DNA from: Minisyncoccota bacterium
GTDB taxonomy: Bacteria > Patescibacteriota > Minisyncoccia > Phycocordibacterales > JBAYLF01
Direction: 5' to 3'
Length of the DNA: 64,000 bases
NCBI GenBank assembly: GCA_041664205.1
Contig: JBAYLF010000003.1
Coordinates: 7,349-71,348, forward strand
The position numbers were made by a program, and so were the translations under genes. Positions 17,310-64,000 of the stretch are shown here, piece after piece (within the stretch, counting starts at the first letter, position 1; every line of letters begins with the position of its first letter). A model generated the notes under the pieces. The model saw only the letters and a list, made by a program, of their open reading frames with translations. It had not been told where the DNA came from and made no database searches.

Positions 17310-17747
17310 TTATGCTGCCACCGCATAAAGTTTTTTGTGAACTTTTTTTACAGATTTAGCATTTTGAGAATCATTATTAATCCATGATTTGATAATTTTT
17401 AAATAATTTCTTACTCTCTCCTCATCAATTTTTCTATGACATGAATCTAAAGCAATTGAATTCTTTCCACAAATAAAGCGGTTAAAAATCCTAGTATTCC
17501 AAGCGACGTGAGTCTTACCCCAATTTGCTTCTTTTTTTTCAACAAGCTTCCATATTAAAAGAAAAAGCTCTTCAAAGGGGGTTTTAAATTTATCAGTTAT
17601 AACGACCTCCTCCATTCGATCTATAACTTGTCTTGCTTTACCAACATTACCCAAAAATCCATATCCAAGGTGATTGAGTAAATCCATAAATTTTCGATCC
17701 TTTGCAGGAACGTATGGATCTTTTTCCATTTCCCATTTTGTTTTCAT
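17310..17747 (-). CDS. hypothetical protein, paralog 1 of a tandem pair (145 aa)
   Basis: Homologous to 17852..18280 (shared EELFLLI(W/F)KL, LD.C.R and a C-terminal KKLYAVAA tail). Unknown family. Confidence 0.6.
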   Translation of the reverse strand: MKTKWEMEKDPYVPAKDRKFMDLLNHLGYGFLGNVGKARQVIDRMEEVVITDKFKTPFEELFLLIWKLVEKKEANWGKTHVAWNTRIFNRFICGKNSIALDSCHRKIDEERVRNYLKIIKSWINNDSQNAKSVKKVHKKLYAVAA

Positions 17748-17800
17748 ATTTTTTAGAACTGATCGGACTACACATTAACATACAATTTTAAAAAACGCAA
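17743..17800 (-). repeat. copy 1 of identical 56-nt promoter/leader repeat
   Basis: CATATTTTTTAGAACTGATCGGACTACACATTAACATACAATTTTAAAAAACGCAA is identical at 18277..18334. The - strand contains TTGCGT, a 17-nt spacer and TAATGT. Confidence 0.7.
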
Positions 17801-17805
17801 ACAAA

Positions 17806-17835
17806 TAAAAAACTCCGTTTATCGCGGAGTTTTTA
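17806..17835 (-). terminator. rho-independent terminator
   Basis: CTCCGTTTATCGCGGAG hairpin flanked by A/T runs. It is similar in sequence to the terminator at 17255. Confidence 0.6.
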
Positions 17836-17851
17836 TGAGAAAATAACAATA

Positions 17852-18280
17852 TTAAGCTGCTGCTGCATAAAGTTTTTTCCTTTTTGCAGAAGGCTTAACA
17901 GTTTTTTGATTCTCATCTTTTAACCATGCCTTTAGAATTCTGACATAACTTTGTGCTTTCTCTTTTTGAGGTTCTCTGTAACATAGGTCCAGATTAATTC
18001 TTCTATTTCCATAAACAAATACGGAATAAGATTTTATCCAATAAGCACCCTTATTTTGAAGTTTAAATATTAGAAGAAAGAGTTCTTCATGATAATTTTT
18101 AAAATCACCAGAACTAATAATCTCTCTCACCCTGTTAATAAAATCTTTACCTTTCTGATCTCCAGAACTAAGTATAATAGGCCCTATACGATTTAGAATT
18201 ACTAAAATTCGTTTTTCTTCTTGGTGCCTTGCCTCACTTTCTGGATTTTTATATTTCAATTTTTTCTGTTTCGTTTCCAT
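17852..18280 (-). CDS. hypothetical protein, paralog 2 of a tandem pair (142 aa)
   Basis: See 17310..17747. C-terminal tail is KKLYAAAA. Confidence 0.6.
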   Translation of the reverse strand: METKQKKLKYKNPESEARHQEEKRILVILNRIGPIILSSGDQKGKDFINRVREIISSGDFKNYHEELFLLIFKLQNKGAYWIKSYSVFVYGNRRINLDLCYREPQKEKAQSYVRILKAWLKDENQKTVKPSAKRKKLYAAAA

Positions 18281-18334
18281 ATTTTTTAGAACTGATCGGA
18301 CTACACATTAACATACAATTTTAAAAAACGCAAG
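18277..18334 (-). repeat. copy 2 of identical 56-nt promoter/leader repeat
   Basis: Identical to 17743..17800. Confidence 0.7.
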
Positions 18335-18345
18335 TATACGAAAAT

Positions 18346-18372
18346 ACCCATCACGTTAAACGTGATGGGTAT
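18346..18372 (-). terminator. terminator hairpin
   Basis: ACCCATCACG-ttaaa-CGTGATGGGT with weak flanking U tracts, downstream of the RRM gene. Confidence 0.45.
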
Positions 18373-18393
18373 TTTCTAAAGCACTAAAATTAA

Positions 18394-26911: not shown

Positions 26912-28123
26912 CTAATGGTAATTCTTAAAACGATTAACTTTTTCGTGCTGGCGAATTTTTTCATGTGCCTTCGCTTCAATCTGTCGGATTCTTTCTCGAG
27001 TAACACCGAACTTTCTTCCAACCTCCTCCAATGTGTGCTGTATTCCATCAATAAGTCCGTGTCTTAATTCCAAAATTTTTCTTTCCTTTTCTGAAAGGTC
27101 GCCTAATATTTCTCTGACTTGGTCGCGCAAAATTCTACGTGACGCATCTTGATCAGGTGAAGAAATTTTTTCATCCGCAAGAAAATCTCCTAATGTAGAC
27201 TTTTCAGAATCATCATCGCTTATAGGAGTTTCTAGAGAAACTGTATTCTGATCAATCTTTTCAATGTTATATATCTTATCAACATCCAAACCCATTTCTG
27301 ATGCGATCTCTTCAGGTAAGGGATCTCGTCCTAGATCCTGACTCAATCTTCTGTATACTTGCTTGTATTTTGCAATAGTTTCAACCATGTGAACTGGGAC
27401 TCGAATCGTTCTTGATTGGTCTGCTAAAGCTCTTGTTATTGCCTGTCTTATCCACCAAGTAGCATATGTTGAGAATTTATAACCTTTTGTCCAATCGAAT
27501 TTTTCTACAGCTTTAAAAAGTCCAAGGTTTCCCTCTTGAATCAAATCGAGAAGTGTAAGATCAGGACTTCGTCCAACATATTTTTTAGCAATAGAAACCA
27601 CAAGTCGAAGGTTCGCTCGAGCTAAAAGATTTTTTGCTTCATGATCTCCTTGAGTAATTTTCTTCGCAAGATCTTTTTCCTGATTACCGTTAAGTAATGG
27701 GTATTGTCCGATCTCCTTTAAATACATTTGGATTGAATCATAAGAAGCATCAGAACGTCTTCCGTATGCGAACTTCTTCATATATTCATCTTCTACATCG
27801 GTTGCACCTAAAAGTCCTCCTCCTTCCAAAACATCAACTCCTGAAGTCTGAAATTTCTCATAAAGATGATCAAGAAATACTATATCGTCTTCAATATTTG
27901 GAAATTCTTTAAGAATTTCATCATGAGTGACGAAACCGCGCTCACGTCCTTTAGCAAGAAGTCTGGCAGCCCTTACTTCCCACTCTTTTTCTCTTTTTGA
28001 ACCGCTCATTTTAGGTTCAGGTTTATTTTTTGCCTTTTTTACCACAGGCTTTTCACTCACTTTTTTAGAAGTGGTTTTCTTTTTCTTTACTATTACTTTT
28101 TTTGTTTTATTTTTCTTTGCCAT
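26912..28123 (-). CDS. rpoD: RNA polymerase sigma-70 factor (primary)
   Basis: Region 2 [45 protein letters not shown], region 3 and region 4 are all present, preceded by a lysine-rich N-terminal extension. Confidence 0.9.
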
Positions 28124-37997: not shown

Positions 37998-38070
37998 TGT
38001 CATTCCCGCGCAGGCGGGAATCTAGTTTCTGTCTGCTTAATCTGGATTCCCGCTTTCGCGGGAATGACAG
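37998..38070. repeat. twin GC-rich palindromic hairpin element
   Basis: TGTCATTCCCGC-gcag-GCGGGAAT ...24 nt... ATTCCCGC-tttc-GCGGGAATGACA. The same 8-bp stem occurs twice, and the outer 12-mers are also mutually complementary. Confidence 0.5.
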
Positions 38071-46116: not shown

Positions 46117-47040
46117 CTACTTATTATCTTCTTTACTAGCTAATAATATATTTATCGCCTTTGTGAATATCGGCAATATATCATTATAAATGTTTAAGTT
46201 CAAGATGTCGGCAATTTTAAACCATTTTGCATCATCGAGACCCCCCGAAGATCCAAGCTTTAAATCAACATGTGGAGCTTTGGCTAAAAAGTAATTTACT
46301 TGCTTTCTAATTTTGCCTCTTTCTGGATCATTGGCCACATATTCATTTTTTCCCAATTCTTCCTTTATTTTAATATCAACACCCATCTCTTCTTTTATTT
46401 TTCTCACAGTGCCTTTCTTTACATCTTCACCTTCTTCAAGTTTCCCTTTAGAAAGAGTCCAGTGTCCGAACACGTCATGAACAAGTGCTAAATAAATATC
46501 TTCGCCATCAACAGAATACACAACAGCACCTCCAAGATTTATGATTGGCATTTGTTCAAATGGTATATCAATATTTTTTTTCTTCTTACTTACTTCGTCT
46601 TTCCCTGGCTCACCCATTTCTTTGTATACAGCTCCGAGCACACCATTGATAAATTTACCAGATGTATCTCCACCGTAAGTTTTTCCAAGTTCTATAGATT
46701 CATTAATCGCAACTTTTGCAGGAACTTCCTTTCTGTCAGAAAATAGAAGTTCAAAAAGACCGATACGTAAAATATTTCTATCAACGATAGATATTTTTTT
46801 GATAGGCCAATCAGGAGCGGCTTTCTCTATAATATTGTCTAGATCTTCGCGATGCTTCAAAACACCTTCTACGATGTTTTTTATAAATGAAAAATCTCCC
46901 ATACCGGGAGCGAATTCTGTCGCATTGCGACGGACAACCTCGTCTATTTCGGCGCTAGTTTTGTGAACTAAAATATCTCTAAAGTCCCACTCAAAGAGTG
47001 TTTGGAGAGCCGTTGAACGTGCAAGGTGTCTATTTGCCAT
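46117..47040 (-). CDS. nusB: NusB antitermination domain fused to a NUDIX hydrolase domain
   Basis: The N-terminal ~140 aa are NusB-like (ARSTALQTLFEWDF...). The C-terminus GGAVVYSVDGEDIYLALVHDVFGHWTLSKGKLEEGEDVKKGTVRKIKEEMGV carries a Nudix box (GKLEEGE...REIKEE type). Confidence 0.75.
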   Translation of the reverse strand: MANRHLARSTALQTLFEWDFRDILVHKTSAEIDEVVRRNATEFAPGMGDFSFIKNIVEGVLKHREDLDNIIEKAAPDWPIKKISIVDRNILRIGLFELLFSDRKEVPAKVAINESIELGKTYGGDTSGKFINGVLGAVYKEMGEPGKDEVSKKKKNIDIPFEQMPIINLGGAVVYSVDGEDIYLALVHDVFGHWTLSKGKLEEGEDVKKGTVRKIKEEMGVDIKIKEELGKNEYVANDPERGKIRKQVNYFLAKAPHVDLKLGSSGGLDDAKWFKIADILNLNIYNDILPIFTKAINILLASKEDNK

Positions 47041-47114
47041 ATTTTTAAAAAACTTATAAATTTTAACCTACAAAAGATACTCTGAAACGATTTCAGACCG
47101 ATCCTATAGAAAAA

Positions 47115-47345
47115 TTATTTATTTGCCTCAGCAACCTTAATCTTCATCTTTTTTGCCTTCTTTTCAGCCTTTGCTTTTAGATCAACTACGACTTTACCCT
47201 TATATTTTCCGCAATTTCCGCATGCTCGGTGCCTTAGAGAAGGAGCACCGCAATCAGGACAAAGTGAAACCGCCATCGCTTTTAGAGCGTGGTGACTTCT
47301 TCTGTTTCCCGTGTGGGAAGTTGTTGATCGCATTCTTACTACCAT
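47115..47345 (-). CDS. rpmF: 50S ribosomal protein L32
   Basis: MVVRMRSTTSHTGNRRSHHALKA...CPDCGAPSLRHRACGNCGKYKG. The start was chosen at MVVRM by homology to L32; the ORF track extends to 47396. Confidence 0.75.
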   Translation of the reverse strand: MVVRMRSTTSHTGNRRSHHALKAMAVSLCPDCGAPSLRHRACGNCGKYKGKVVVDLKAKAEKKAKKMKIKVAEANK

Positions 47346-47427
47346 ATGTAAATAGTATACAAAAATATTAAAAAAAGGCAATGCTATCTTGTGCAAATGT
47401 AAAAGAAACTAATTCCTACATAAAAAC

Positions 47428-50400
47428 TTAAGGCAATGTTGTCGTGCCAAAACCAATAAAGTTAGAATCGTGATAACTATTCGCGCCGCTCCATCCAACA
47501 CGATACAATGCACGCACAGTGCTCCCACTAATATCAAGTGATGGATATTGAAAACCATGATAAGCGATACTGTCTGCCAAACTCATACCTGTAGAAGTTA
47601 CTAAATCATTCTCATCTATAATTGTTTTAATCGGAGAGAAAGACGGACTACTTAAATCTGCGGATGAGCCACTAACTAATACAACTCTATTTCTTTGATC
47701 AAGAGTGCTTGTGCCATTATTTGTAAGTGAGTAAAAATAACCACCATTCTTAATAAGCTGAAATTTATCAGTTCCTCCTGGCAAATCTTTTATATAACTG
47801 CTATTCCATGTCGGATTAGAAAGTGTTGTTCCATTCCATGTCTGAGGTAAAAATACTGCCTTGTCAGTTACCCCACCACTATGAAAACGCAATACGTTGT
47901 ATATATTTCCAATATCATCAACAACAGCATTACCTTCTATAAAACCACCGTTAGATGAAAAACTATGCGCTCCAATCGCTAGTGCTGTCGTCGTTGCCCA
48001 ATTAGCTTTATTAGTAAGATCGACATTATCTGGAGCATAGAGAATAAGGGATTGAAAACCGCTATCAGAACCACTTGAACGAGTATAAGGATCGAGATCC
48101 TCAATAGCAATAAACAAATGATTATTGTAATACAAAGGATTTATTCCACCTGACTTATGATAGTTAGGAGGAGTAATTCCAGACCCAGCAGGAGGAAGCG
48201 GTCCGCCACTACTGCTTAATGTTGTCGAAGACCACGTAGCACCTTCGTCTGTTGATTTTTTAAGCACTACATCACCGTATATAATTGATGTTCCTACAAA
48301 ATATAAATTACCATCGGTATGCTGCCAAATAGAACCCCATTGAAAATTAGTCGGGAAATTAGCAAGCCCATACCATGAGATTCCACCGTCATTACTTACA
48401 TAAAGTCGTCCGGCACCGCCACCAATACCAGAATCAAAATAATCATGCATAGCATACAATTTGCCATTAGCAGACAAAAAGCCAGGTGACCCAAGATAAC
48501 TCGTAGCCGGTGCATCTGAACGATCAACCAAAGAATTTCCCCATGGATAAGCAATTAGACTCGCTAGCGTCGGCTGAATATTTTTCCAAGGATGATTACT
48601 TGGAAGCAAACTTGTCTTTCCATCTTCCCACGCCATAACTCCCTCAAGATATCGCACTTCCTCATCAGTCAAAGCTCCATTTACAATTATCATGTCATAG
48701 ATATCACCAGACCAATACAAGTTACTTGCAGAACTATTAAGCCTTCTTCCTAACTGTATCAATTGTTCAGTGCTTGCAGAAGGAAGATCGGTTGGACGGA
48801 ATGAGCCATCAGATAATTCTGTGCCACCAGTAACAGTGCCATTACGTTTTACACCGTTAAGCCAATTAGCTACTTCTCTTCCACTAAAACGTCCGGAAAA
48901 TAATGCGAGCCCACTACTGTTTACTGTGTAGTCAGTATATACTGAGTAGCCTACAGAACCTCCAAAAACCATGAGTCCATTATTTGAAGTAAAAACAACA
49001 GAATTCGGTTGACTGTCACTCGTAGCACTTTGCGAAGCGCTAAAAATTCGACGATCGTTATCTCGTGAATCAGCCAAAACAACAACTGTTACACCACGCA
49101 AAAGATCTATTTTACCCGGAACTGTTAAATACTGACTGCTTGTTGATGCAAATCTAATAGCACTATCTCCAGACAAAGATTTATAAATTGGTTGATTACC
49201 AGAAGATGATTGCGACGCAAGCACTCCAGCATTTCGTAATACCACTGATGAAACAGCATTTCCATCGCCTACCGACAATACATCGCTTGCTTTTAGTCTC
49301 CACACTCGAGTTGGAACAAAGCGAGTTTCCTGTGTAATCGCAGTATGAGCATTCACTGTCGGCTTCGCGCCAGTGTTTGGTGGAACATCACCAACAGGAA
49401 GACCTTGTAATCCACCGAATTTTGAATATGCAAAACGACCAGGGCCGTCAGTAGCCTCATCTAGTGGAAAATACAAAACTGGCTCCCCACCACTTGCAGC
49501 CGATGGCCTCTGACCGTTTGTTATAGCAAGTAGTTCTGTTGTGCTTAATGCGCGAGCAAAGACCGCAACATCAGCAATTTTCCCATTAAACGGTTCGGTA
49601 CCTGTAGGCGTAGAATTATCCCCTATTCTGTCTTTCCCTAAAAAACTAGAACCTGAAGTATAAACAGAAGCGCCAAAAGTTACAGATGCCGAACCGCTCG
49701 TATCAAGAACTCCATCTAAATACACATTTATTGTATCGTTTGCAATATCATTAATCGCAGCAATAGTATGCCAAGCATTCGTAGGAACTGTAGTTGCTCC
49801 TAATTTGCTTTGAAATGAATCGGTATTCTTAGATCGTCCATCACCTTCAATCTTACCTGTTGAAGAAATTACCAAAGCGATACCATTTAAATTTTCACCT
49901 AACTCCGCAGAAAAGACTGATCGCCCACCACTTCCAGCTGAATCTACCCACACTCGCGCAATTGTTGTTATTTGAGAAGCACCTTCAATAAGTTGTGAAG
50001 CATGAGAAGGGCTTAATTCTAATGTATTAGACGAAGAACCATCAAAAACACGACCGATATAACCCGCTTGATTAGTTGTAAATGTTTGATCACTTGAAAC
50101 CGAAAGATTGCCTGACGCATCAGTTGAACGAACACGAAAATGATAAAGGGTACTGGCAGTAAGCCCAGAGAGAACAACTGAATGACTTGTTACTAAAAGC
50201 GAATCTAATGTGCTTGTCAAACCATAAGAATTGGTCAAACCATATTCCACCTGCGAAGTTGCAACTTCATCAGTAGTCCATGTAGTAGTAGCTGTTGTAT
50301 CCTCAGGAATGCCAGAAGATATTAAAGATATAACAGGCCCCGTATTATCCACAGCAACAGTAATAACACTCGACGTCGCATAATTCCCCACCCCATCTCT

Positions 50401-51567
50401 CCCAACAGCAATAATCGTATGACTTCCATCAGCAACAGCAGTAGAATTCCACATAACTCCATAAGGAGAAGAAATATCTTCTGAACCAATTAGAGTATTC
50501 GTATCAAGTTTAAACTGAACACCAGAAACTGAAACGTCATCTGTTGCTGTTGCTGAAAGAGTTACTGCACTTCCTGTGACAGTTGAATTGTTAGCTGGAG
50601 CAGTAACGGTAACAGTAGGTGAAGTAGTGTCAGCTGCAACTGTGAAAGAAACAGTATAATCAGTAGTATTTGCATTACCTAAGTTATCTTGGCATTTGAT
50701 GTAATAAACATAACTACTACCATTAGTAAGATTAGATACCGTCATTGAATGTGAAGTAGAACCTGTGGTTGTAAATGCTGTCATAGAAGAATATGCGGAA
50801 CCAGAGTTCGTAGAATATTTACATGACGCTACTTCGTTAGTAGCAACAGAGAGCGTTGTCGATGTTGTGTTTAATGCAAGAGTTCCTGATGGAGAACCTG
50901 ATGAAAGCACAGGTGGAATAGAGTCACCGCCTCCACCAAAGCCTGGTGCATATGCGTTAAGAACTACAGGGGATGGCGTTGGAGTTGGGATTGTTGGTGT
51001 TGTTACAGTAATCGCTGTTGTGTTAACAGGAGTTAAAATTAGTTTTGATAACTCTGTGATTTTTGCTCGAGTTTGAGGTCCAACAATACCTATTGGTTCA
51101 ATTCCGCGCACCTTTTGGAAGTTAGTTACAGCAACTTTAGTAATTTCACCAAAATATCCAGTAATTGTTGGATATGTGTATAAACCAATTATTTTAAGAA
51201 ATTGTTGTAATTCAGAGACGTCATTACCAGAAAGACCTATGTGTAAAGGTCGAGGAGTATTGGATTGGGTAAGATTATTTAATAGATCTCTAGTTAGTGG
51301 ACCAACTGAACCAACTGTTTCAAGATTGTTTGCTTGTTGGAATTTTTTTACTGATTCTTGCGTAACAGATCCAAAGTATCCAGTGATTGAATGAGAAAAG
51401 TATCCTTTGTCTTTTAAAATTTGTTGAAGAGAAGAAACATCTGTTCCTTTATCTCCTATATTAAGAGAGTTGTTAAAAATATACGCTTGTATTGAGTTTG
51501 GGAAAATGAAAATACTAACTATACCTAAAAACAAAATGCTGATTTGTAAGCGTTTTTTAACATTCAT
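47428..51567 (-). CDS. large secreted multidomain surface protein (2x PG-binding, Ig/FN3-like, 2x LamG/ConA-like, BNR-repeat propeller)
   Basis: Signal peptide, then two PG_binding_1-like repeats (GDKGTDVSSLQQILKDKGYF..., GNDVSELQQFLKIIGLYTY...), an FN3-like block (SGLTASTLYHFRVRSTDASGN), two LamG-like regions, and BNR/Asp-box motifs (SNDGGISW, STDEGATW). Confidence 0.75.
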   Translation of the reverse strand: MNVKKRLQISILFLGIVSIFIFPNSIQAYIFNNSLNIGDKGTDVSSLQQILKDKGYFSHSITGYFGSVTQESVKKFQQANNLETVGSVGPLTRDLLNNLTQSNTPRPLHIGLSGNDVSELQQFLKIIGLYTYPTITGYFGEITKVAVTNFQKVRGIEPIGIVGPQTRAKITELSKLILTPVNTTAITVTTPTIPTPTPSPVVLNAYAPGFGGGGDSIPPVLSSGSPSGTLALNTTSTTLSVATNEVASCKYSTNSGSAYSSMTAFTTTGSTSHSMTVSNLTNGSSYVYYIKCQDNLGNANTTDYTVSFTVAADTTSPTVTVTAPANNSTVTGSAVTLSATATDDVSVSGVQFKLDTNTLIGSEDISSPYGVMWNSTAVADGSHTIIAVGRDGVGNYATSSVITVAVDNTGPVISLISSGIPEDTTATTTWTTDEVATSQVEYGLTNSYGLTSTLDSLLVTSHSVVLSGLTASTLYHFRVRSTDASGNLSVSSDQTFTTNQAGYIGRVFDGSSSNTLELSPSHASQLIEGASQITTIARVWVDSAGSGGRSVFSAELGENLNGIALVISSTGKIEGDGRSKNTDSFQSKLGATTVPTNAWHTIAAINDIANDTINVYLDGVLDTSGSASVTFGASVYTSGSSFLGKDRIGDNSTPTGTEPFNGKIADVAVFARALSTTELLAITNGQRPSAASGGEPVLYFPLDEATDGPGRFAYSKFGGLQGLPVGDVPPNTGAKPTVNAHTAITQETRFVPTRVWRLKASDVLSVGDGNAVSSVVLRNAGVLASQSSSGNQPIYKSLSGDSAIRFASTSSQYLTVPGKIDLLRGVTVVVLADSRDNDRRIFSASQSATSDSQPNSVVFTSNNGLMVFGGSVGYSVYTDYTVNSSGLALFSGRFSGREVANWLNGVKRNGTVTGGTELSDGSFRPTDLPSASTEQLIQLGRRLNSSASNLYWSGDIYDMIIVNGALTDEEVRYLEGVMAWEDGKTSLLPSNHPWKNIQPTLASLIAYPWGNSLVDRSDAPATSYLGSPGFLSANGKLYAMHDYFDSGIGGGAGRLYVSNDGGISWYGLANFPTNFQWGSIWQHTDGNLYFVGTSIIYGDVVLKKSTDEGATWSSTTLSSSGGPLPPAGSGITPPNYHKSGGINPLYYNNHLFIAIEDLDPYTRSSGSDSGFQSLILYAPDNVDLTNKANWATTTALAIGAHSFSSNGGFIEGNAVVDDIGNIYNVLRFHSGGVTDKAVFLPQTWNGTTLSNPTWNSSYIKDLPGGTDKFQLIKNGGYFYSLTNNGTSTLDQRNRVVLVSGSSADLSSPSFSPIKTIIDENDLVTSTGMSLADSIAYHGFQYPSLDISGSTVRALYRVGWSGANSYHDSNFIGFGTTTLP

Positions 51568-51590
51568 AATTTAAATGACTATTACTCTTT

Positions 51591-51618
51591 ATTTTACCCC
51601 CCCCATTTTTTTTGGCAA
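51591..51618 (-). promoter_or_regulatory. candidate promoter with a homopolymeric A7-T-G8 spacer (possible phase-variation switch) for 47428..51567
   Basis: On the - strand: TTGCCA-AAAAAAATGGGGGGGG-TAAAAT, a 16-nt spacer made entirely of A7, T and G8. The + strand shows C8 at 51597..51604 and T8 at 51606..51613. The ATG lies about 25 nt downstream of the -10. Confidence 0.4.
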
Positions 51619-51684
51619 GAATACTAAAGTCAAAGATGTATATTTTTTAACCCAAACCAACTGTAAAGACAGAAATAATTAAAA

Positions 51685-52299
51685 TTAGCTAAAGTTTTTC
51701 AAAAAGCTCATTCTATGGATTTCACAAACTCCAAATTTTTTGATAGCGTCCCGATGAAATTTAGTTCCATACCCTTTATGTATTTCGAATCCATAATTTG
51801 GATATTTTTTTGCCAACAAACACAGCTTTCTGTCACGTTTAACTTTTGCAACAATTGATGCGAGTGAAATAATCGGAATTTTTTCATCTCCTTTAATAAT
51901 AGTTTCTTGAAATTCAAATTCTACAGGCGCCTTGATTCCTCCATCGAGTAAAACTCTGCATTCATTTGGATTTAAATTTAATTTATTTAACGATCTTTTT
52001 ATCGCCAACTTAATGCATTTTGATAGACCTGTCTTATCTATCATTTTATGACTTACAAAAGAAACTTTATAATCCAAGTTACCATTCTTTTTTTCTTGAA
52101 TAATTTTTTTGCACCATTCCTCTCTTTTTTCCAAAGTTAATTTTTTAGAATCTTTTACCTCTATAAAAAATGATTTTTGATATCTAGAATACATAGAATT
52201 AGCCATTGCAACCACACCTATCGCCACAGGGCCAGCCAATGGCCCTCGTCCAACTTCATCAATTCCAACAATAAATCTGACTTTAGTCTTCTTATTCAT
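51685..52299 (-). CDS. rnhB: ribonuclease HII
   Basis: VGIDEVGRGPLAGPVAIGVV and the rest of the RNase HII catalytic core. Confidence 0.9.
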   Translation of the reverse strand: MNKKTKVRFIVGIDEVGRGPLAGPVAIGVVAMANSMYSRYQKSFFIEVKDSKKLTLEKREEWCKKIIQEKKNGNLDYKVSFVSHKMIDKTGLSKCIKLAIKRSLNKLNLNPNECRVLLDGGIKAPVEFEFQETIIKGDEKIPIISLASIVAKVKRDRKLCLLAKKYPNYGFEIHKGYGTKFHRDAIKKFGVCEIHRMSFLKNFS

Positions 52300-52487
52300 T
52301 TAAATAAATTTTGTTATAATAGACTTGTTAGTCAAATAACCTTTCTTTCGAAATTCATATATTTTGGCTACAACTCGTCAAAAATGTTTCAAAATACCAC
52401 AGGTATTCTTCAACATTTTTGACTTCGTTTCGCTCAAAATATATTAATTTCTCTAAGAAATCCTATTTGGTAACAAGTCTAATTATC

Positions 52488-55400
52488 ATGGCTTCTAAAT
52501 TTACACACCTCCACGTTCACAGTCATTATAGCCTACTAAATGCTCTGCCAAAAATCCCGGCTCTGATCAAGGAAGCAAAGAAAAATGGGATGGAAGCTAT
52601 AGCTTTGACAGACAACGGCAATCTCTATGGAGCGATTGAGTTTTATAAAGAGTGCAAAAAGCAAAAAATAAAGCCGATCGTAGGCGTTGACGCATTTGTG
52701 GCTGTCCGCACACGCTTTGATAAAGAACCAAGAATTGATAATAAAAGATACCGCCTAATACTTCTCGCAAAAAACGAGAACGGCTACAAAAATCTTTTAA
52801 AAATAGTAACTGGCGCAAACCTTGAAGGCTTTTATTATAAACCGCGCGTTGATCGAGAATTGCTAGCAAAAAATCCTGAAGATATTATCGCGATCTTCCC
52901 TTCGTTCAGTGGAGAAATTACACAAGCGTTAAAGATCGGCGACAATGAAAAAGCAAAGGAAGTTTTAGATGCATACATAAAAATATTCGGTAAAGAAAAT
53001 ATTTATCTTGAAATAACTCATCACCCTGAAATTACCAGCCATGAGGAGTTGATGAAAAAGATAATAAGTTTCGCAAAAGAAAACGGTGCGGAAATTGTCG
53101 CGACTCACGATGTTTATTATCTTCATCCGGAAGACAAAAAAGCGCGCGACACTCTGCTTGCCATTCAAACAAGTTTCGAAGGAGACAGAAGTGAAAATGG
53201 CGAAGCCTATGATTTTTCTTTTATCACACAGGAACAAGCGCGGGATTTTTTCAAAGATATTCCCGAAGCAATATCGAATACTCAAAAAATTGCTGATGCT
53301 TGCGATTTGAAGCTTGAACTCGGCAAATGGGTTTTTCCAGACTTCGAAGTGCCTGGTGGAAAAACACCCGATGAAGCACTTCGCGATTTTGCTTACAGTG
53401 GAATAGAGCTTCGAGGACTCCAAAGAACACCGGAATTAATAGAGCGTATAGAATACGAACTCAAGGTTATAAAAGACAAAGGTTATTCTCCGTATTTTCT
53501 TGTGGTATCAGATCTGCTCGTCTACGCAAAAAATCATCATATCTTCAGCACCACTAGAGGCTCCGCGGGCGGATCTATGGTCTCTTATCTAACTTACATC
53601 ACAACAGTAAACCCTATCGAATACAACCTACCATTCGAAAGATTTTTAAATCCTGAAAGACCTTCGGCTCCCGATATTGATATGGATATCGCAGACATCA
53701 AGCGTGATCAGCTTATTCAGTATGCGATAGAAAAATACGGTAAAGACAAAGTGGCTCAAGTTGGAACATTTGGAACTATGATGGCTCGAGGCGCTGTGCG
53801 AGACGTAGCGAGAGCAATGGGCTATCCATATTCTACTGGTGATCAGATAGCAAAAATGATTCCTATGGGGGCACAGGGCTTTCCTATGACGATAGATAAG
53901 GCCATGTCCGAAGTTCCAGAACTTAAAAAGAAGTATGAAGAAGAGGAAGATGCAAAAACAATTATCGATATGGCAAAAAAAATTGAAGGTTGTGCACGAC
54001 ACATCTCCATTCATGCCGCCGGAGTTGTTATTGCGCCCACAGCTTTGACAGACTTTGTTCCACTACAAAACGACCCTAAAGGAGGAAAACTTATCACCCA
54101 ATACGATATGCACGCTGTTGAAGATGCAGGACTTCTTAAGTTCGACTTTCTTGGAATTAAAAATCTTTCGATCCTTGCAGATGCAGTTGATCGTGTAAAA
54201 AAAATACGCAACATAGATGTAGATATAGATAAAATTCCAACTGACGATAAAAAAACTTTTGAAATGCTTGCGCGCGGTGAAACTACCGGACTCTTTCAAT
54301 TAAACGGCGATGGAATGACTCGATACTTAAAAGAACTCAAACCAACAAGTATCAACGACATCAACCTTATGGTTGCACTTTATCGTCCAGGACCTATGGC
54401 AACAATTGATGAATACATCGCGCGTAAACATGGTGATAAAAAAGTTACCTACTACCACCCAAAGATGGAAAAATTCTTAGACAAATCATTCGGACTTTTG
54501 GTTTACCAGGACGATCTACTTTTTACTGCAATAGAACTTGCAGGATACACATGGGCAACTGTTGATAAATTTAGAAAGGCAGTGGGTAAAAAAATTCCAG
54601 AAGAAATGGCGAAGCAACATGAAATTTTCGTAAGTGGCTGTCAGGAGCACAGCAATATGAGTAAAGACGCAGCAGAAAAAATATGGACACTATTTGAACC
54701 GTTTCAAGGATACGGATTCAACAAGGCACATGCTGCAAGTTACGGACGAGTAGCATATCAAACTGCATATATGAAAGCGAACTTTCCCGCTATATATATG
54801 TCAGCAGTTTTAACGGCAGATTCTGGAGATGTCGAGAAAATCGGTGAAACTATCGCCGAATGCAAAAGAATGGGAATTGAAGTTCTGCCTCCAGATATAA
54901 ATGAAAGTTTTTCAGCATTTACAGTGATTGAAGGAAAGTCGAGAGAAAGCGACAAAATCCGCTTCGGCTTAACTACGATAAAAAATTTCGGTGAAGGAAT
55001 TTCACAGACAATAATTGAGGAAAGAAAAGCGCGAGGGAAATTCACATCACTCCAAAATTTCCTTGAAAGAATAAAAGATAAAAATTTAAATAAAAAATCA
55101 CTCGAAGCACTGATAATGACTGGTGCACTTGATGAATTTGGTGAACGAGGAGAATTAATTTCAAATATTGAAGAGCTTTTGGCATATCACAAAGAATTCA
55201 AAAATGCTCCTGAAAATCAAGACTCGCTTTTTGGCGCATTCGATTTCGGCTCACCTTTCACTTCACTTAAAATGCACAAAGCAGAACCAGCGAGCCAAGC
55301 ACAAAAACTCGTTTGGGAAAAAGAACTTTTAGGATTATATATTTCCGGGCATCCTTTAGATAAATTCAAAGAAAAACTCGCTGGCAAAAAAGGTATTGAA

Positions 55401-58207: not shown

Positions 58208-59833
58208 TTATTCTCTGTTCTCTTTATTATAAGAGATCTTTTCCCAAACTGAGTTGAATATAGGTGTAGCATTTTTTGTAGGAACTTCACCAATATTTGT
58301 AGCGAGTGTATTTTTACCTACTTTCTTTCGATAAATTACATAAGCTATAATTGCGCTCCATAAAGCCAACATTGCCATAAACAATCCTGTCTTTATATTA
58401 TCTTCCAATCCTGTATAAGGAACTTGGCTTAATGAAACGAATTGGGATGAAGATGGTTGCTGATACAATACAGTGCTTTGATTAGTATTGATGTTTGTAT
58501 AGCATGTTCTAGTAATTGATTGATTTCCGGAAGTTATAACTAGAGTTGCAGTTTTAGTTCCGTAGGTTGGATAACTTTTAGTTATTGATGAACCACTGCC
58601 AGATAAGTTGTCAGTTCCATACCAGTAGTAACTATAGTTTCCAGCTCCACCATATGCTGCTGCGTTCCAAGTTACATTTTCATTAATATTTGGATTTGAA
58701 TTTGATGCAGAGCATGAACCGTTTAAAGTTTGATCAGTGTAATACTGTTGCTGAACATAAACTGAACATGTTCTTGTAACAGTTTGATTTCCATCGCTGA
58801 TAGTTAAAGTAGCATTCTTTGTTCCATATGTTCCATATTGTTTACTTAATGAAGATCCATATCCATAAAGACTATCGTCACCACTCCAGTAATAAGTATA
58901 GTTGCCTGTGCCTCCAGAAGCAGAACCATTCCAAACAACAGTATTGCCAACATTTACTGTAAATGGATTTGCATAACAACTTGCTTGAAGCAATGATGGT
59001 AATGGTGTTGGTGCAGGGTTTACATAATTTGGAGTATTAAATGCAAGAACAATGCTTGCGTTAGAATTATTATTGTTAGTGTTTGTTGGATTGTTTGCTA
59101 CAACAACATTATTATTATTTGTAGCAACGGCTGTTGTATTACCTCCTGTAGTTCTATTTGTTACAACATTGCTTCCACCGTTAGAATTTCTAGAGTTTGA
59201 ATAGTTAGATAAGAAAGGAAGACTTATAGAACCTGTTGAATAATAAGGTTGGGAGTAAGAAGAGCTACAAGAACTACAATACTGATCGTTAAAGTCATCG
59301 TAATAAGAATCAAAATCGTAAGAATATCCAGAACCATAGGAATCATAGCCGTAATCGCTATAGTCTGTATATCCATAATCGCTGTAATCAGTATAACCAG
59401 TGTAATCTCCATAGTCGCTGTAATCTGTGTAACCATACTGACTGTTTAGATTGTCATAGTAAGAACTAAGATCGTCTGAATAATTACTATAATCTGTGTA
59501 GACAGAATTATCATAATTACTGTAATCGGTATAACCGCTGTAGTCACTATAGTCTGTGTATCCGCCATAGTCGCTATAATCTGTATAACCTCCGTAGTCG
59601 CTATAGTCAGAATATCCACTGTAGTCACTGTAATCTGTGTAACTACCATAATCACTGTAATCAGAATAGCCACCATAATCGCTATAATCTGTATAACCTC
59701 CGTAGTAGCTGTAATCGTAATACTCTTGAGCGTTTACTGTATTAGATGACGCCGCAAAAATAATTACTAACCCCAGCACAAAAACGGTTTTTAAAAACTC
59801 ATTATTAAAATTTTTCTTAAATATTTTATTCAT
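58208..59833 (-). CDS. secreted Tyr/Asp/Ser-rich repeat protein with two PKD-like domains and a C-terminal anchor
   Basis: Signal peptide, then about 160 aa of GYTDYSDYG-type 9-aa repeats, an N/T-rich linker, two PKD-like modules (NxTVxWNxSASGGxGNYxYYWxGxD...GTKxATLxIxxGNQxxTRTC), and VPYTG followed by a TM helix and an RKK tail. Confidence 0.7.
   Translation of the reverse strand: MNKIFKKNFNNEFLKTVFVLGLVIIFAASSNTVNAQEYYDYSYYGGYTDYSDYGGYSDYSDYGSYTDYSDYSGYSDYSDYGGYTDYSDYGGYTDYSDYSGYTDYSNYDNSVYTDYSNYSDDLSSYYDNLNSQYGYTDYSDYGDYTGYTDYSDYGYTDYSDYGYDSYGSGYSYDFDSYYDDFNDQYCSSCSSSYSQPYYSTGSISLPFLSNYSNSRNSNGGSNVVTNRTTGGNTTAVATNNNNVVVANNPTNTNNNNSNASIVLAFNTPNYVNPAPTPLPSLLQASCYANPFTVNVGNTVVWNGSASGGTGNYTYYWSGDDSLYGYGSSLSKQYGTYGTKNATLTISDGNQTVTRTCSVYVQQQYYTDQTLNGSCSASNSNPNINENVTWNAAAYGGAGNYSYYWYGTDNLSGSGSSITKSYPTYGTKTATLVITSGNQSITRTCYTNINTNQSTVLYQQPSSSQFVSLSQVPYTGLEDNIKTGLFMAMLALWSAIIAYVIYRKKVGKNTLATNIGEVPTKNATPIFNSVWEKISYNKENRE
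59250..59730 (-). repeat. in-frame tandem repeat array, 27-bp unit, about 15 copies (encodes the YTDYSDYGG repeats)
   Basis: Units such as GTATCCAGAACCATAGGAATCATAGCC and GTAATCGCTATAGTCTGTATATCCATAATC recur on the + strand. The many short I/T/V-rich ORFs at 59224..59676 are repeat artefacts. Confidence 0.7.
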
Positions 59834-59920
59834 AAAAATGATTTAAATTCCTTATAATTCTTCCCGCTAATTTCTTAAAATACTACACCACTTTGCAAAA
59901 AAAGTCAATAGCGACGCTCT

Positions 59921-60571
59921 TTAGTTTGATTTCCCCACAAAATCAGCTTCTATAACATATCTTTCCTGCTTTTCTCCGAAAGTATTGCATGTTGAAAGCG
60001 TAAGCATTGCATTTCTAGGTGTTAGATCGACAAAAGCCTTATTAGAATCAACCAGGGAAACATCTCTTACTTTATATAAATAAAGCTTACTATCCGAATA
60101 TATCTTTATTTCACCACCACTTTTTAGATTTTTTAAGTTATTAAAAGTTTTATAAGCTTGATTATTAACAACTTTAATTCCAGTTGAGTGGCCAAAAATA
60201 AACATATTACCTTCCCCAACATATCCTGATCCAGGATATCGAACTGCTCCTTTTTTCAATTCTTCATCAAGGTAGCTTATATCCTCTTGTATCGGATTTG
60301 AAACATAAGAGTCAATTCCAATAGATTCTATAACAATACGCGTAGGCAATGATTTTGGAATAGGGGTATTTGTTTGACTTCTATCTGATAGATTACTTGA
60401 ACTATCGCTTATACTCTCAAAATTAAGAGATATTGGAACAAATCCGAGCATATAAAGAATAACAAAAGAGCTGAGAAAAACCAGATTAAAAATAATAGCA
60501 AAACCAAAAGTATGCCAAGAAAAAAATTCCTCCTTAAATAGATTAAATATGCTTTTATTCTCAGTATTCAT
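59921..60571 (-). CDS. sortase (class A/E-like transpeptidase)
   Basis: N-terminal TM, catalytic His in MFIFGHSTG, LTLSTC (TLxTC Cys motif) and a conserved Arg in RYVIEA. Confidence 0.8.
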   Translation of the reverse strand: MNTENKSIFNLFKEEFFSWHTFGFAIIFNLVFLSSFVILYMLGFVPISLNFESISDSSSNLSDRSQTNTPIPKSLPTRIVIESIGIDSYVSNPIQEDISYLDEELKKGAVRYPGSGYVGEGNMFIFGHSTGIKVVNNQAYKTFNNLKNLKSGGEIKIYSDSKLYLYKVRDVSLVDSNKAFVDLTPRNAMLTLSTCNTFGEKQERYVIEADFVGKSN

Positions 60572-60696
60572 ATGTCGTGATTATACATTATATTTACATT
60601 TAAGTCAATACGAGCACGACAAGCTTTGTTTATCTTTATTTGACAAAAAATCAATAATATACTATAATTTCTAACAATAAAACTAATTATTTCTTC

Positions 60697-62019
60697 ATGG
60701 AAAACAATAATTCAAACGAAAAAAGTCAGGCATTTAAAAGAACTTTGGTTCGATCTTTTGCAATATTAATAATGGCAGTGATCATTATTTTTGGTTGCTT
60801 AGCAATTGTAAGAATTGTTCCTATAGTTTTTAATTCTATTTCAGGAGCAAGCACTTCCCTATCTTCATTTTTTGGATCAAAAGAAAAAATAACTCTTTCA
60901 GTTGAACCTAACCAAATAAAATCAGGGGAAGTTTTTAGTTTATCTTTTACTCATTCAAACAAAAATAAAGACGGCGACTATTATTTAAGTTATGGATGCA
61001 AAAACGGAGTAAGATTAGAAAATCCTTCATTAAGTAAAAATGCTTTATTCTGCAATACTCCGATAAAGTTAGGCAATTTAATAAGCAACAAAATATCATT
61101 GAAAGGATTTTCTGTAAAAGAAAATTCTGAAATTCCTCTAACACTAAGCTTTATTCCTCAAGGAGAAAATAAAACTTCAGTCTCTAAAGACATATCAATA
61201 ACGATACTTAAGGGTAATGGCGTAAATGTTTCTTCAAAACAAAATACTAGCACTACTGCGCACAATAGCGGTCCTGCAAATCTTTCTGTGCGAATATTAA
61301 ACACTGGAGTAATCGATCAATATACAAATCAGTTCGTTGCAAGATCTTTTAATAATACAGATAAAGCGGCGATCCAATTCATAGTAGAAAATTCCGGCGG
61401 AGAACCAACGGGAATATGGAGTTTTAAAGCAACTCTTCCAAGCAACATAGGGCAAACTTATGAATCTCCTACTGAGCCTTCACTCGCTCCTGGAGATGGA
61501 ATTCGATTTACACTCGGATTCAACGGAATCGTAGATCAAAATCCTGCTGTTGTAACAATTACTATCAATTCAGACAATGCGGGTGCAAACAAAACAGCAA
61601 CAGCTGTATTGATCAGAAACAGTTCCAACAACACAGTAATCACAAATAATTATTATTCAGATCTAAGCATAAGAATCTTAGATACAGGAACTATCAATAG
61701 ATATACAGAGCAATATACTTCAAATTCATACATAACTAGTTCTGATAAAGCAGCAGTAAGATTTGAAGTTTCAAATCTTGGGGGGCAAAATACTGGAACA
61801 TGGAAATTTAACGCAAATATTCCAACCTCAAATAATCAAACTTATAGTTCTTCTTATCAAAATTCAATGGCACCAGGAGAAAAAAGGACTGTTATTTTTG
61901 GTTTTGATAATTTAATAAAAGGTTCGAGTAATATTTATATAAATCTAAATCCTGATAATACTGTAAACGAAACTAACCGATCAAATAACTCGGCACAAAC
62001 AACTTTGTTTGTTTACTAA
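60697..62019 (+). CDS. membrane-anchored protein with two CARDB-like repeat domains
   Basis: N-terminal TM. Internal repeats LSVRILNTGVIDQYT...ENSGGEPTGIW and LSIRILDTGTINRYT...SNLGGQNTGTW, with a C-terminal DNTVNETNRSNN CARDB-type ending. Confidence 0.55.
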   Translation: MENNNSNEKSQAFKRTLVRSFAILIMAVIIIFGCLAIVRIVPIVFNSISGASTSLSSFFGSKEKITLSVEPNQIKSGEVFSLSFTHSNKNKDGDYYLSYGCKNGVRLENPSLSKNALFCNTPIKLGNLISNKISLKGFSVKENSEIPLTLSFIPQGENKTSVSKDISITILKGNGVNVSSKQNTSTTAHNSGPANLSVRILNTGVIDQYTNQFVARSFNNTDKAAIQFIVENSGGEPTGIWSFKATLPSNIGQTYESPTEPSLAPGDGIRFTLGFNGIVDQNPAVVTITINSDNAGANKTATAVLIRNSSNNTVITNNYYSDLSIRILDTGTINRYTEQYTSNSYITSSDKAAVRFEVSNLGGQNTGTWKFNANIPTSNNQTYSSSYQNSMAPGEKRTVIFGFDNLIKGSSNIYINLNPDNTVNETNRSNNSAQTTLFVY

Positions 62020-62081: not shown

Positions 62082-64000
62082 TTAAAATTCATTGATATTT
62101 ATTTTCACACAAGTTGGATATTTATGACTAACATCAACAATGGAACCGTTATAAAATGTTCCGCTAACACATGTTAATTTAACTCCACTACAAGTTTGAT
62201 TAGCCCCTACAGTTCGCGATGTATAAAATATTCTTGATTCTCCATCTGCAACTGTAACTCCACCCCTGGTGCAATTTTGTATACATGCATTATTTCGACA
62301 GCCGTATTCGCACTCTGTCCATAATGTATCTTCGCAAAGTTCATTTTTTTGATACAAATTTCCATCTTGGCAGAATTGATTATGACTACATGCACTTATT
62401 GTAGCGGGCAAGCATTTTCCATTTTCACAACCATAAAGACAATCTTGAACCTTTACTTCAACGCATTTGTCATTCTTTTTATAAACATCTCCATTCTTAC
62501 AAAAATTAGAGTGATCACAAGTTGGTATATTTACAGGACAGCTACCATCAGAAAGATGCTGTTGACCATCCTCACAAGGCACACAGAAAGGACTGTCTGG
62601 ATCAACACACTGACCTTCACATATTACATTTGGACCCAAACAAGCATCTGCAACATTAACCGATGGACATCGAATAGACACTGTCTGACCTCCAACTGCC
62701 TGATACTGACGATAAGATTTAGTAGGATCATTTAATGCTTGATTTATTGAAGAAACAGTTACTAACATTGTTTTGTTACCCACTTCATTATATACAATCG
62801 GTAGAAGCGAAGTAGTTTTAGAAATTGTTGAACTATTATATCTTTTATTAGCAACTGTGCCATAAGCAATATTTATTATTTGATTTTTAAGATTATTAGC
62901 CAATGCAACAAAATCAGAATCTGGGCTTGACCAAGAGTAAGCATAAGTATGACCATTATACGCCAAACCTCCGCTTGCCTGTGCACTCCATGTAACATCA
63001 CTACCCTTTACTATAGAATTTCTATCTGGGAAACATGCAACTGTAAGAGGAGGAATATATATTGCGGCATCAATATTAGCGCAACCTATACCCATACTAC
63101 CATTAAGATAAGTTACTATACTGCAAGTAACACCGCCGCCAAGCCAGCTATTACATTCTGTCAATAAAGTATTAATATTTATGTTTCCATTAGTATATTG
63201 CTGTAATGCGTAAGTAAAATTATTATCTATTCCTGTGCAACAACTAGTATGACCCGCAAGTCTAACAACAAAACCAGATGATTGTGTTCCGCCTGTAAGA
63301 TTTACTATAGATACTTTGCAAGCTGAACTTGTAACATTATTAAATGTAACTGTTGCTGTATATGTTCCATAGTTACTATAAGCCTTATGAACAGATACAT
63401 CACTATCGTAACTTCTAATTCCATCAAAAATCCACTTATATTGAGGATTTTTTACTTGTGGATCTGGGCTTACTGCCACTGTCCATTTTACATTAACTGG
63501 AAAAGTTGTTGTTCTAAAAATAGGAGCATCTGGACTGCAAGTTACAGTGACCGCATCAGTAGTTGCTGCCTCTGCCTTCCTCATAGTAATAAGTTTTTCA
63601 ACTGAAGCTAAAACTTTATCAAACAAAGTCGGTGATTTAATTGATACGGGCGATGTTGCCTTATTAGAACTTCTTATGATTGCCTCGTATGGAGCGTATC
63701 CTACAAGATTTGCTAATAAGCCATTTTTACCTTGGCTTATTGCATTGCTAATCATAGTAAGAGTAACAACATCAGCTGATTTCATTGCACCTTTAAGAGA
63801 TAAAACTGCTTCATCTTTTTTATTTTGTGCACTATATGAAGCGGCAGAGAAGAAATCTATCCTACTAGCTGTGCTGGCTCTTTCGTTATCCATGATTGTA
63901 TTATCGCTTGCTGCCAACTCTTTTGCTTTATCAAAAAACCTTAGTGCTTCTGTAAAATCTTTATTGTTAAAGTAAGCCATTCCCGCCCACTCATAAGCTA
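62082..64000 (-). CDS. large secreted protein with TPR-like N-terminal region, PKD-like domain and C-terminal Cys-rich (EGF-like) repeats; partial, its 5' end lies beyond the window
   Basis: The reading frame stays open upstream of the listed ATG to the window edge (..AYEWAGMAYFNNKDFTEALRFFDKAKE is TPR-like). Other elements: KWIFDGIRSYDSDVS...YTATVTF (PKD-like) and repeated CxxGxC...C modules at the C-terminus. Confidence 0.6.
   Translation of the reverse strand, partial: AYEWAGMAYFNNKDFTEALRFFDKAKELAASDNTIMDNERASTASRIDFFSAASYSAQNKKDEAVLSLKGAMKSADVVTLTMISNAISQGKNGLLANLVGYAPYEAIIRSSNKATSPVSIKSPTLFDKVLASVEKLITMRKAEAATTDAVTVTCSPDAPIFRTTTFPVNVKWTVAVSPDPQVKNPQYKWIFDGIRSYDSDVSVHKAYSNYGTYTATVTFNNVTSSACKVSIVNLTGGTQSSGFVVRLAGHTSCCTGIDNNFTYALQQYTNGNININTLLTECNSWLGGGVTCSIVTYLNGSMGIGCANIDAAIYIPPLTVACFPDRNSIVKGSDVTWSAQASGGLAYNGHTYAYSWSSPDSDFVALANNLKNQIINIAYGTVANKRYNSSTISKTTSLLPIVYNEVGNKTMLVTVSSINQALNDPTKSYRQYQAVGGQTVSIRCPSVNVADACLGPNVICEGQCVDPDSPFCVPCEDGQQHLSDGSCPVNIPTCDHSNFCKNGDVYKKNDKCVEVKVQDCLYGCENGKCLPATISACSHNQFCQDGNLYQKNELCEDTLWTECEYGCRNNACIQNCTRGGVTVADGESRIFYTSRTVGANQTCSGVKLTCVSGTFYNGSIVDVSHKYPTCVKININEF

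Follow-up and report, generated by a model that had tools for sequence, protein, structure and literature searches.

An A8-T-G8 tract between putative -35 and -10 hexamers of a Paceibacterota surface-protein gene: a credible, unproven candidate for a slippage-tuned promoter spacer

Can slippage in a homopolymeric tract tune the promoter of a surface-protein gene in a bacterium of the candidate phyla radiation (CPR)? The question is raised by the DNA just upstream of a gene for a 1379-aa protein on the minus strand of a 64,000-nucleotide stretch (the window, by which we mean the whole stretch of DNA analysed). The initial annotation had read this DNA as the promoter TTGCCA-(A7 T G8)-TAAAAT, placed about 25 nt from the gene start, and had proposed phase variation through its homopolymeric spacer. 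Re-reading the minus strand reproduced both the letters and the coordinates of this arrangement, and the spacer, measured again, is indeed 16 nt long (A7 + T + G8); the end of the -10 hexamer lies 23 nt from the ATG at 51567. The A run needed refinement: seven A stand in the spacer, while the run itself is an A8 that includes the terminal A of TTGCCA. The layout reads ...CTTTGACTTTAGTATTC-TTGCCA-AAAAAAA-T-GGGGGGGG-TAAAAT-AAAGAGTAATAGTCATTTAAATT-ATG, and the promoter candidate that it contains is called P2 below. The features at the locus are:

51613..51618, minus strand: -35-like hexamer TTGCCA of promoter candidate P2, a 5/6 match to TTGACA
51606..51613, minus strand: A8 run, with seven A in the spacer (51612-51606) and its first A as the last base of TTGCCA
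51605..51605, minus strand: single T dividing both homopolymers, from the sequence read-out
51597..51604, minus strand: G8 run (C8 on the plus strand), immediately 5' of the P2 -10 hexamer
51591..51596, minus strand: -10 hexamer TAAAAT of P2, from the sequence, the promoter scan and the position-weight score
47428..51567, minus strand: gene for the 1379-aa secreted surface protein, from the ORF, Pfam, motifs and homologues
51685..52299, minus strand: rnhB (RNase HII), the next gene upstream, co-oriented, from Pfam

The tract is non-coding, since a TAA stands in frame 6 nt before the ATG at 51567 and rules out a longer N-terminus that would run through it. Read on the plus strand, C8-A-T8 was rejected as a terminator, as it has no complementary G-rich arm and the spacer contains no predicted terminator. 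Two small ORFs over the tract, of 23 aa (51589..51660, minus strand) and 35 aa (51575..51682, plus strand), were set aside as mechanical and without support. The former, a TTG-initiated ORF (MVWVKKYTSLTLVFLPKKMGGVK), crosses both homopolymers and ends inside the -10 hexamer or immediately past it; there is no sign that it is translated, and a change in tract length would shift its frame. No match to a structured RNA or riboswitch was found with Rfam in the window, and the predicted fold of the leader of the 1379-aa gene is not significant (z = -0.92).

Any reading of the tract as a promoter spacer depends on the transcription signals used by the host, and the window encodes the relevant factor:

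26912..28123, minus strand: primary sigma-70 with regions 1.1, 1.2, 2, 3 and 4, from the domain search

Regions 2, 3 and 4 of this factor and hexamers spaced at 16-18 nt are thus both present. The clear promoters of the window follow TTGAC[TCA]-16/17-TAnAAT, with examples upstream of genes such as TTGACA-17-TATAAT, TTGACT-17-TATAAT and TTGACC-17-TATCAT with a TGn extension. Because a sigma-70 is encoded and textbook promoters occur in this genome, the sigma-70 consensus is usable here, and sigma-70, with region 4 for the -35, is the factor that would read the -35/-10 spacing. In many promoters of the window the -10 is no more than 6-12 nt away from the ATG, and a putative -10 at 23 nt, as in P2, fits the style of the genome. 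At several genes an extended -10 (TGnTATAAT) stands 6-12 nt from the ATG with no Shine-Dalgarno visible (e.g., 7654<-7280, 26836, 60571, 39999), a pattern which suggests that leaderless or very-short-leader mRNAs are widespread in this Paceibacterota genome.

Within positions 47000-53000, P2 is the best promoter-like match (10/12 in the promoter scan), and a 10/12 match in its own 117-nt spacer region has P = 0.028 against dinucleotide shuffles. Such a scan discriminates poorly in AT-rich DNA: the whole window holds 218 matches of at least 9/12, and promoter-like matches are not enriched in 47000-53000 (19 vs 17.2 in shuffles). Scored with position weights from E. coli frequencies plus a spacer term, P2 reaches 11.3 bits and ranks 9/38 among the upstream regions, in the upper quarter and in the company of the clear TTGAC-17-TAnAAT promoters. 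In P2 numbering, the G8 fills positions -20 to -13 and so provides the G that an extended -10 has at -14, and the P2 transcription start is predicted at ~51583-51586 from the usual distance of ~7 nt. By sequence, the tract therefore lies between a -35 and a -10 hexamer, with an overlapping alternative, P1, that is weighed below.

The gene itself belongs to a class in which such control is familiar. Its product is NCBI entry MFA6338806.1, 'peptidoglycan-binding protein [Candidatus Paceibacterota bacterium]', and consists, in order, of a signal peptide (MNVKKRLQISILFLGIVSIFIFPNSIQA, with an IQA-Y cleavage-type site), two PG_binding_1 domains, a Thr/Pro linker, the Ig-like Big_7, an fn3-like region, Laminin_G_3 and a sialidase/BNR-like C-terminal region. 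The earlier description as a PG-binding/LamG/BNR protein holds for both PG_binding_1 domains and for Laminin_G_3, to which Big_7 and the fn3-like region are added; BNR stays below the Pfam threshold and is backed by two Asp-box motifs (SNDGGISW and STDEGATW) and by homologues. The C-terminal 700 residues gave no significant Pfam match, and a PDB sequence search with the C-terminal half returned 0 matches. This half is 42-55% identical to five metagenomic proteins, of which one carries BNR_2 (PF13088) and another a faint Sialidase (PF02973) in precomputed annotation. The product is a wall-anchored, probably glycan-binding surface protein, and the combination of signal peptide and PG_binding domains is a classic class of phase-variable genes. 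The GC3 of the gene (0.22, against a genome mean of 0.26) is normal, so the gene is native, and recent horizontal acquisition is ruled out.

The earlier remark that G8/C8 runs are very rare here is borne out by the run-length table of the window, whose G+C content is 35%. The G8 is the sole G/C run of at least 7 nt, all others being of 6 or fewer, and no G/C run of at least 7 was found in ~15 kb of extra flank of the same contig (~79 kb covered in total). All 11 other G/C runs of at least 5 nt in the window lie inside coding sequence; the G8 sits in the non-coding share, which makes up ~10% of the window. Calculated analytically for Markov orders 1-4, with run-extension probabilities extrapolated, 0.01-0.1 G/C runs of at least 8 nt are expected per 64 kb, and an A8 abutting a G8 is expected ~1e-5 to 3e-4 times per window as estimated from run counts. 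A8/T8 is the longest class of A/T run in the window (13 runs); two homopolymers of the window's maximal length class adjoin back to back at this locus. In a genome this AT-rich, a G8 would be expected to erode unless it were recent or maintained.

We propose, tentatively and with somewhat less than even confidence, that the tract is a slippage-tuned promoter spacer controlling the surface-protein gene. TTGCCA-16-TAAAAT would be a sigma-70-type promoter that drives the gene or adds to its transcription, with A8-T-G8 as its spacer, and cells with G7, G8 and G9 would arise at elevated frequency. G7 would give a 15-nt spacer, ~1.9 bits worse and in practice usually a large drop, and the present G8 gives the 16-nt spacer and the present strength; G9 would give the optimal 17-nt spacer, a gain of ~1.3 bits and a stronger promoter, and G10 an 18-nt spacer of a strength similar to the present one. 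The A8 run could act as a second, slower dial. The outcome would be a heritable, reversible and graded amount of surface protein among cells, as in a contingency locus of the porA or tp0126 type, probably working as a volume control and not as a strict on/off switch. The activity of P2, variation in tract length and a dependence of expression on spacer length are all inferred, and the biological effect of G8 slippage depends on P2 being the main promoter. The length of the tract is suitable: the G8, with its adjoining A8, reaches the ~8 nt or more at which G/C tracts become hypermutable (PMC5084427, PMC7864442). Eight nucleotides is the lower edge of the hypermutable lengths, and the G8 is expected to slip at an elevated rate. 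The stronger proposal, that a dual A8/G8 'two-dial' spacer stochastically tunes a PG-binding LamG/sialidase-like adhesin and is the first contingency locus described in CPR, appears rather unlikely.

An identical contig is on record in ENA (ERZ27249449 k141_323699, 300,645 bp, MEGAHIT), where the G8 occupies 241676-241683, and in Logan as a 12-kb contig of SRR6484324. Over the 10 kb compared, these assemblies agree at 100% identity; both very probably come from the same reads and are hence not independent, and the organism is known from one sample. Beyond them, relatives are distant. The closest relative of the RNase HII has 62% identity in protein searches, and against metagenome contigs the best identity among the matches listed is 59%. 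Protein searches returned no full-length orthologue of the 1379-aa protein, a scan of genome contigs with this protein gave four matches, all remote, and the protein clusters of both proteins flanking the tract (MFA6338806.1 and MFA6338807.1, from a 'Candidatus Paceibacterota bacterium' MAG) are singletons. Upstream of homologous genes on seven Paceibacterota-type contigs (L089, L090, L092, L093, L097, L098 and L099), a G/C tract was found in 0/7 cases; these seven homologues have ordinary promoters, mostly with an extended -10 (TGnTAnAAT-like), and one T9 is present.

This T9 is the sole homopolymer among the seven upstream regions. It lies at ~790-828 of L090, inside the spacer of TTGTAT-16-TATAAT, whose -10 ends 7 nt from the ATG of a gene for a 1128-aa PG_binding/Big_7 protein; dnaE and rnhB are neighbours of this gene in the syntenic Paceibacterota MAG GCA_031411135.1. 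The T9 could be a parallel instance of a surface-protein promoter whose spacer contains a homopolymer.

The absence of the tract from homologues is what would be expected if the homopolymers were incidental, that is, a by-product of slippage in a tolerant spacer or intergenic stretch, with a fixed G8 and a gene that is constitutive or otherwise regulated. We regard this explanation as a serious possibility, if a somewhat doubtful one. From the Markov expectation and the rate elsewhere (458 kb of other CPR-type loci contain five 7-nt runs and a single G8, which lies at the 3' end of an ORF), ~0.2-1.5 G/C runs of at least 8 nt would be present in a 0.6-1 Mb genome, so that a G8 somewhere in such a genome is unsurprising; its position is less expected. 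With a single locus in ~79 kb of the same contig there is also no 'phasome', the assemblies give one clean consensus, and in N. meningitidis a 1-bp difference in the A tract of the nspA promoter alters expression while the short tract shows no measurable switching (PMC6389960). Against an incidental origin, the G8 is the only G/C run of at least 5 nt outside coding sequence in the window and abuts a second run of maximal length, and the tract occupies precisely the gap between the two hexamers of a promoter match that is significant and precedes a surface-protein gene. Moreover, where length has been measured, most G tracts of at least 8 nt prove variable: within isolates of T. pallidum, 76% of the 17 poly-G tracts in this size class differ in length (PMC7864442), and deep sequencing found homopolymers of at least 8 nt in N. 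meningitidis to be predominantly variable (PMC5084427).

A further possibility, which we consider improbable, accepts a promoter at the locus and assigns it to a different pair of hexamers:

51628..51633, minus strand: -35 hexamer TTGACT of the overlapping candidate P1, from the promoter scan and score
51605..51610, minus strand: -10-like AAAAAT of P1, with a spacer of 17 and a 9/12 match

If P1 (TTGACT 51633-51628, AAAAAT 51610-51605) were the active promoter, with a transcription start predicted at ~51597-51600, the G8 would form a G+C-rich discriminator and the initial transcribed region. There its influence would fall on open-complex stability, on the choice of start site or on reiterative transcription, and not on spacer length, and gaining or losing 1 nt would matter little; P1 itself would be insensitive to the length of the G tract. 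Control by reiterative transcription or a start-site homopolymer, of the pyrG or pyrBI type, is conceivable only in this configuration. The -35 form and the spacing of P1 look typical of the genome, TTGACT being the -35 sequence that recurs most often in the clear promoters of the window and, with a 17-nt spacer, the commonest architecture among its strong ones. P1 is listed by the promoter scan, scores 9.3 bits and would rank ~13/38. Its -10 is poor, however: AAAAAT has no T at -12, a 9/12 match arises too often in dinucleotide shuffles to be significant (P = 0.18), and P2 has both the better -10 and the higher total score.

The -10 of P2 is also the one used by a homologue. P0241 (L099 8227-11661) is the closest core homologue of the 1379-aa protein, aligning with its residues 500-1377 at 55% identity over the LamG and sialidase-like core. 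Upstream of its ATG, the P0241 gene carries TGGTAAAATAAGG, in which the -10 is TGGTAAAAT, and GGTAAAATAA is common to this promoter and the window; the shared sequence mildly favours TAAAAT as the real -10 here. In P0241, the PG_binding module and the fn3-like region are C-terminal, whereas they are N-terminal in the 1379-aa protein, an arrangement that indicates domain shuffling among CPR surface proteins. On L099, the P0241 gene follows that of another PG_binding/fn3 protein and is next to ribosomal-protein, secY, adk and map genes.

On the sequence evidence we favour P2 over P1, with P1 or a tandem arrangement as the possible alternative.

A sequencing or assembly artefact (Illumina poly-G or a collapsed homopolymer) is very improbable: homopolymers are error-prone and both assemblies probably share reads, but the tract lies in the interior of a 300-kb MEGAHIT contig and likewise of a 12-kb Logan contig from a different assembler, its flanks are unique and identical in both, the neighbouring genes are intact, and poly-G artefacts sit at read ends and not in 8-nt internal runs.

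Returning to the slippage-tuned spacer, its effect would depend on the other transcription that reaches the gene. No terminator or significant structure was found between rnhB and the surface-protein gene, so read-through from rnhB may supply a basal level of expression. Together with the overlapping P1, this possible read-through would blunt any switch to a graded change. The phase-variation reading is therefore retained in part: the anatomy is real and the analogy with known loci apt, while an on/off switch is made less probable by P1, the lack of a terminator, the solitary tract and the tract-free homologues. As judged from its sequence, the locus is a credible, unproven candidate for a spacer tract of the porA or tp0126 type.

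The likeness to established promoter tracts, drawn earlier with Neisseria among the examples, appears apt in view of the poly-G spacer tracts of porA and tp0126. The porA tract is of 9-11 G, longer than the G8. As in our locus, N. meningitidis porA has poly-G in the sigma-70 spacer of a surface-protein gene, where expression is governed by spacing and 17 nt is optimal (PMC7864442). Unlike here, variability of porA is demonstrated and Neisseria has many such loci, whereas the present tract is the sole locus in ~79 kb, has its G8 joined to an A8 and occurs in an environmental CPR bacterium. The tp0126 gene of T. pallidum, which encodes an OmpW homologue, likewise has poly-G between -35 and -10 with an optimum at 17 nt, and this organism is also comparable in its small genome, in having long been difficult to cultivate and in having tracts of ~8 G in play (PMC7864442). 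It differs in its many poly-G tracts, in within-isolate variation established by fragment analysis and in reporter assays.

Homopolymers other than G serve similarly. The vlp promoters of Mycoplasma hyorhinis have a poly-A spacer in which 1-bp steps change surface-protein transcription. In N. meningitidis nspA, transcription of a surface gene responds to 1-bp steps in an A tract that precedes the -10 (PMC6389960). Both vlp and nspA have single A tracts, whereas here A8 and G8 are combined, and of the two the G tract should mutate more readily. Promoter homopolymers also modulate the volume of transcription in N. meningitidis opc (poly-C over the -35) and T. pallidum tprL (poly-G over the -10) (PMC7864442). 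In opc and tprL, the tracts overlap a hexamer, whereas both P2 hexamers stay intact at any tract length.

The mechanism is textbook; the host lineage is new for it. The CPR (Patescibacteria) have tiny genomes, few regulators and a lifestyle reliant on surface contact with host cells, and surface variation in CPR is known mainly from two sources. One is diversity-generating retroelements. The other is a hypervariable coding-repeat gene in a Gracilibacterium (PMC6851277). Mismatch-repair status varies among CPR lineages (PMC8406219). In the available part of the literature that combines 'candidate phyla radiation' and 'phase variation', no promoter tract in CPR was found, and the present tract, if the proposal is true, would be the first such promoter tract reported in CPR. 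Under the stronger, two-dial proposal, clonal populations of an ultrasmall episymbiont could hedge host-attachment states or evade phage or host recognition. If the tract varies, the cheapest known stochastic gene control would also operate in a large uncultured radiation, and a LamG/sialidase-like wall-binding protein would be flagged as a probable interaction determinant; if it is invariant, the locus is an ordinary promoter with an odd spacer.

The genes around the locus are housekeeping ones, with dnaE divergent and rpmF, a nusB-NUDIX fusion and rnc downstream; rpoB, rpoC and dnaG are also in the window. The NusB-NUDIX fusion (46117-47040) is kept in the distant syntenic relative L090 (10159-11067), in the order dnaE, rnhB ... 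nusB-NUDIX, rnc. A second cell-surface cluster occupies 58208-62019, where a sortase gene (59921..60571) lies between genes for a PKD-domain protein (58208..59833) and a CARDB-domain protein (60697..62019); its divergent promoters, TTGACA-17-TATAAT and TTGACT-17-TATAAT, are near-perfect.

Three further observations concern other parts of the window. At 37998-38069, two perfect ATTCCCGC-N4-GCGGGAAT palindromes stand in a larger inverted repeat (31-nt arms, 87% complementary) and form a G+C-rich island upstream of trmD; 0 occurrences of the motif are expected, it is present only there in the window, and the element may be REP- or MITE-like. The minus-strand genes 17310..17747 and 17852..18280 have identical ~58-nt upstream regions (17748-17851 and 18281-18393), each with the same TTGCGT-17-TAATGT site and with its own hairpin and T-run before the gene, and look like tandem paralogues with duplicated control regions. 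Finally, a 632-aa ORF without a Pfam match (62082-63980, minus strand) is part of a 932-aa TPR-repeat protein in the contig annotation (L096 11386-14184). As the ORF begins at the first start codon after an upstream stop, the missing residues are C-terminal, and for a product of 932 aa the stop codon at 62082-62084 must either be read through or differ in sequence.
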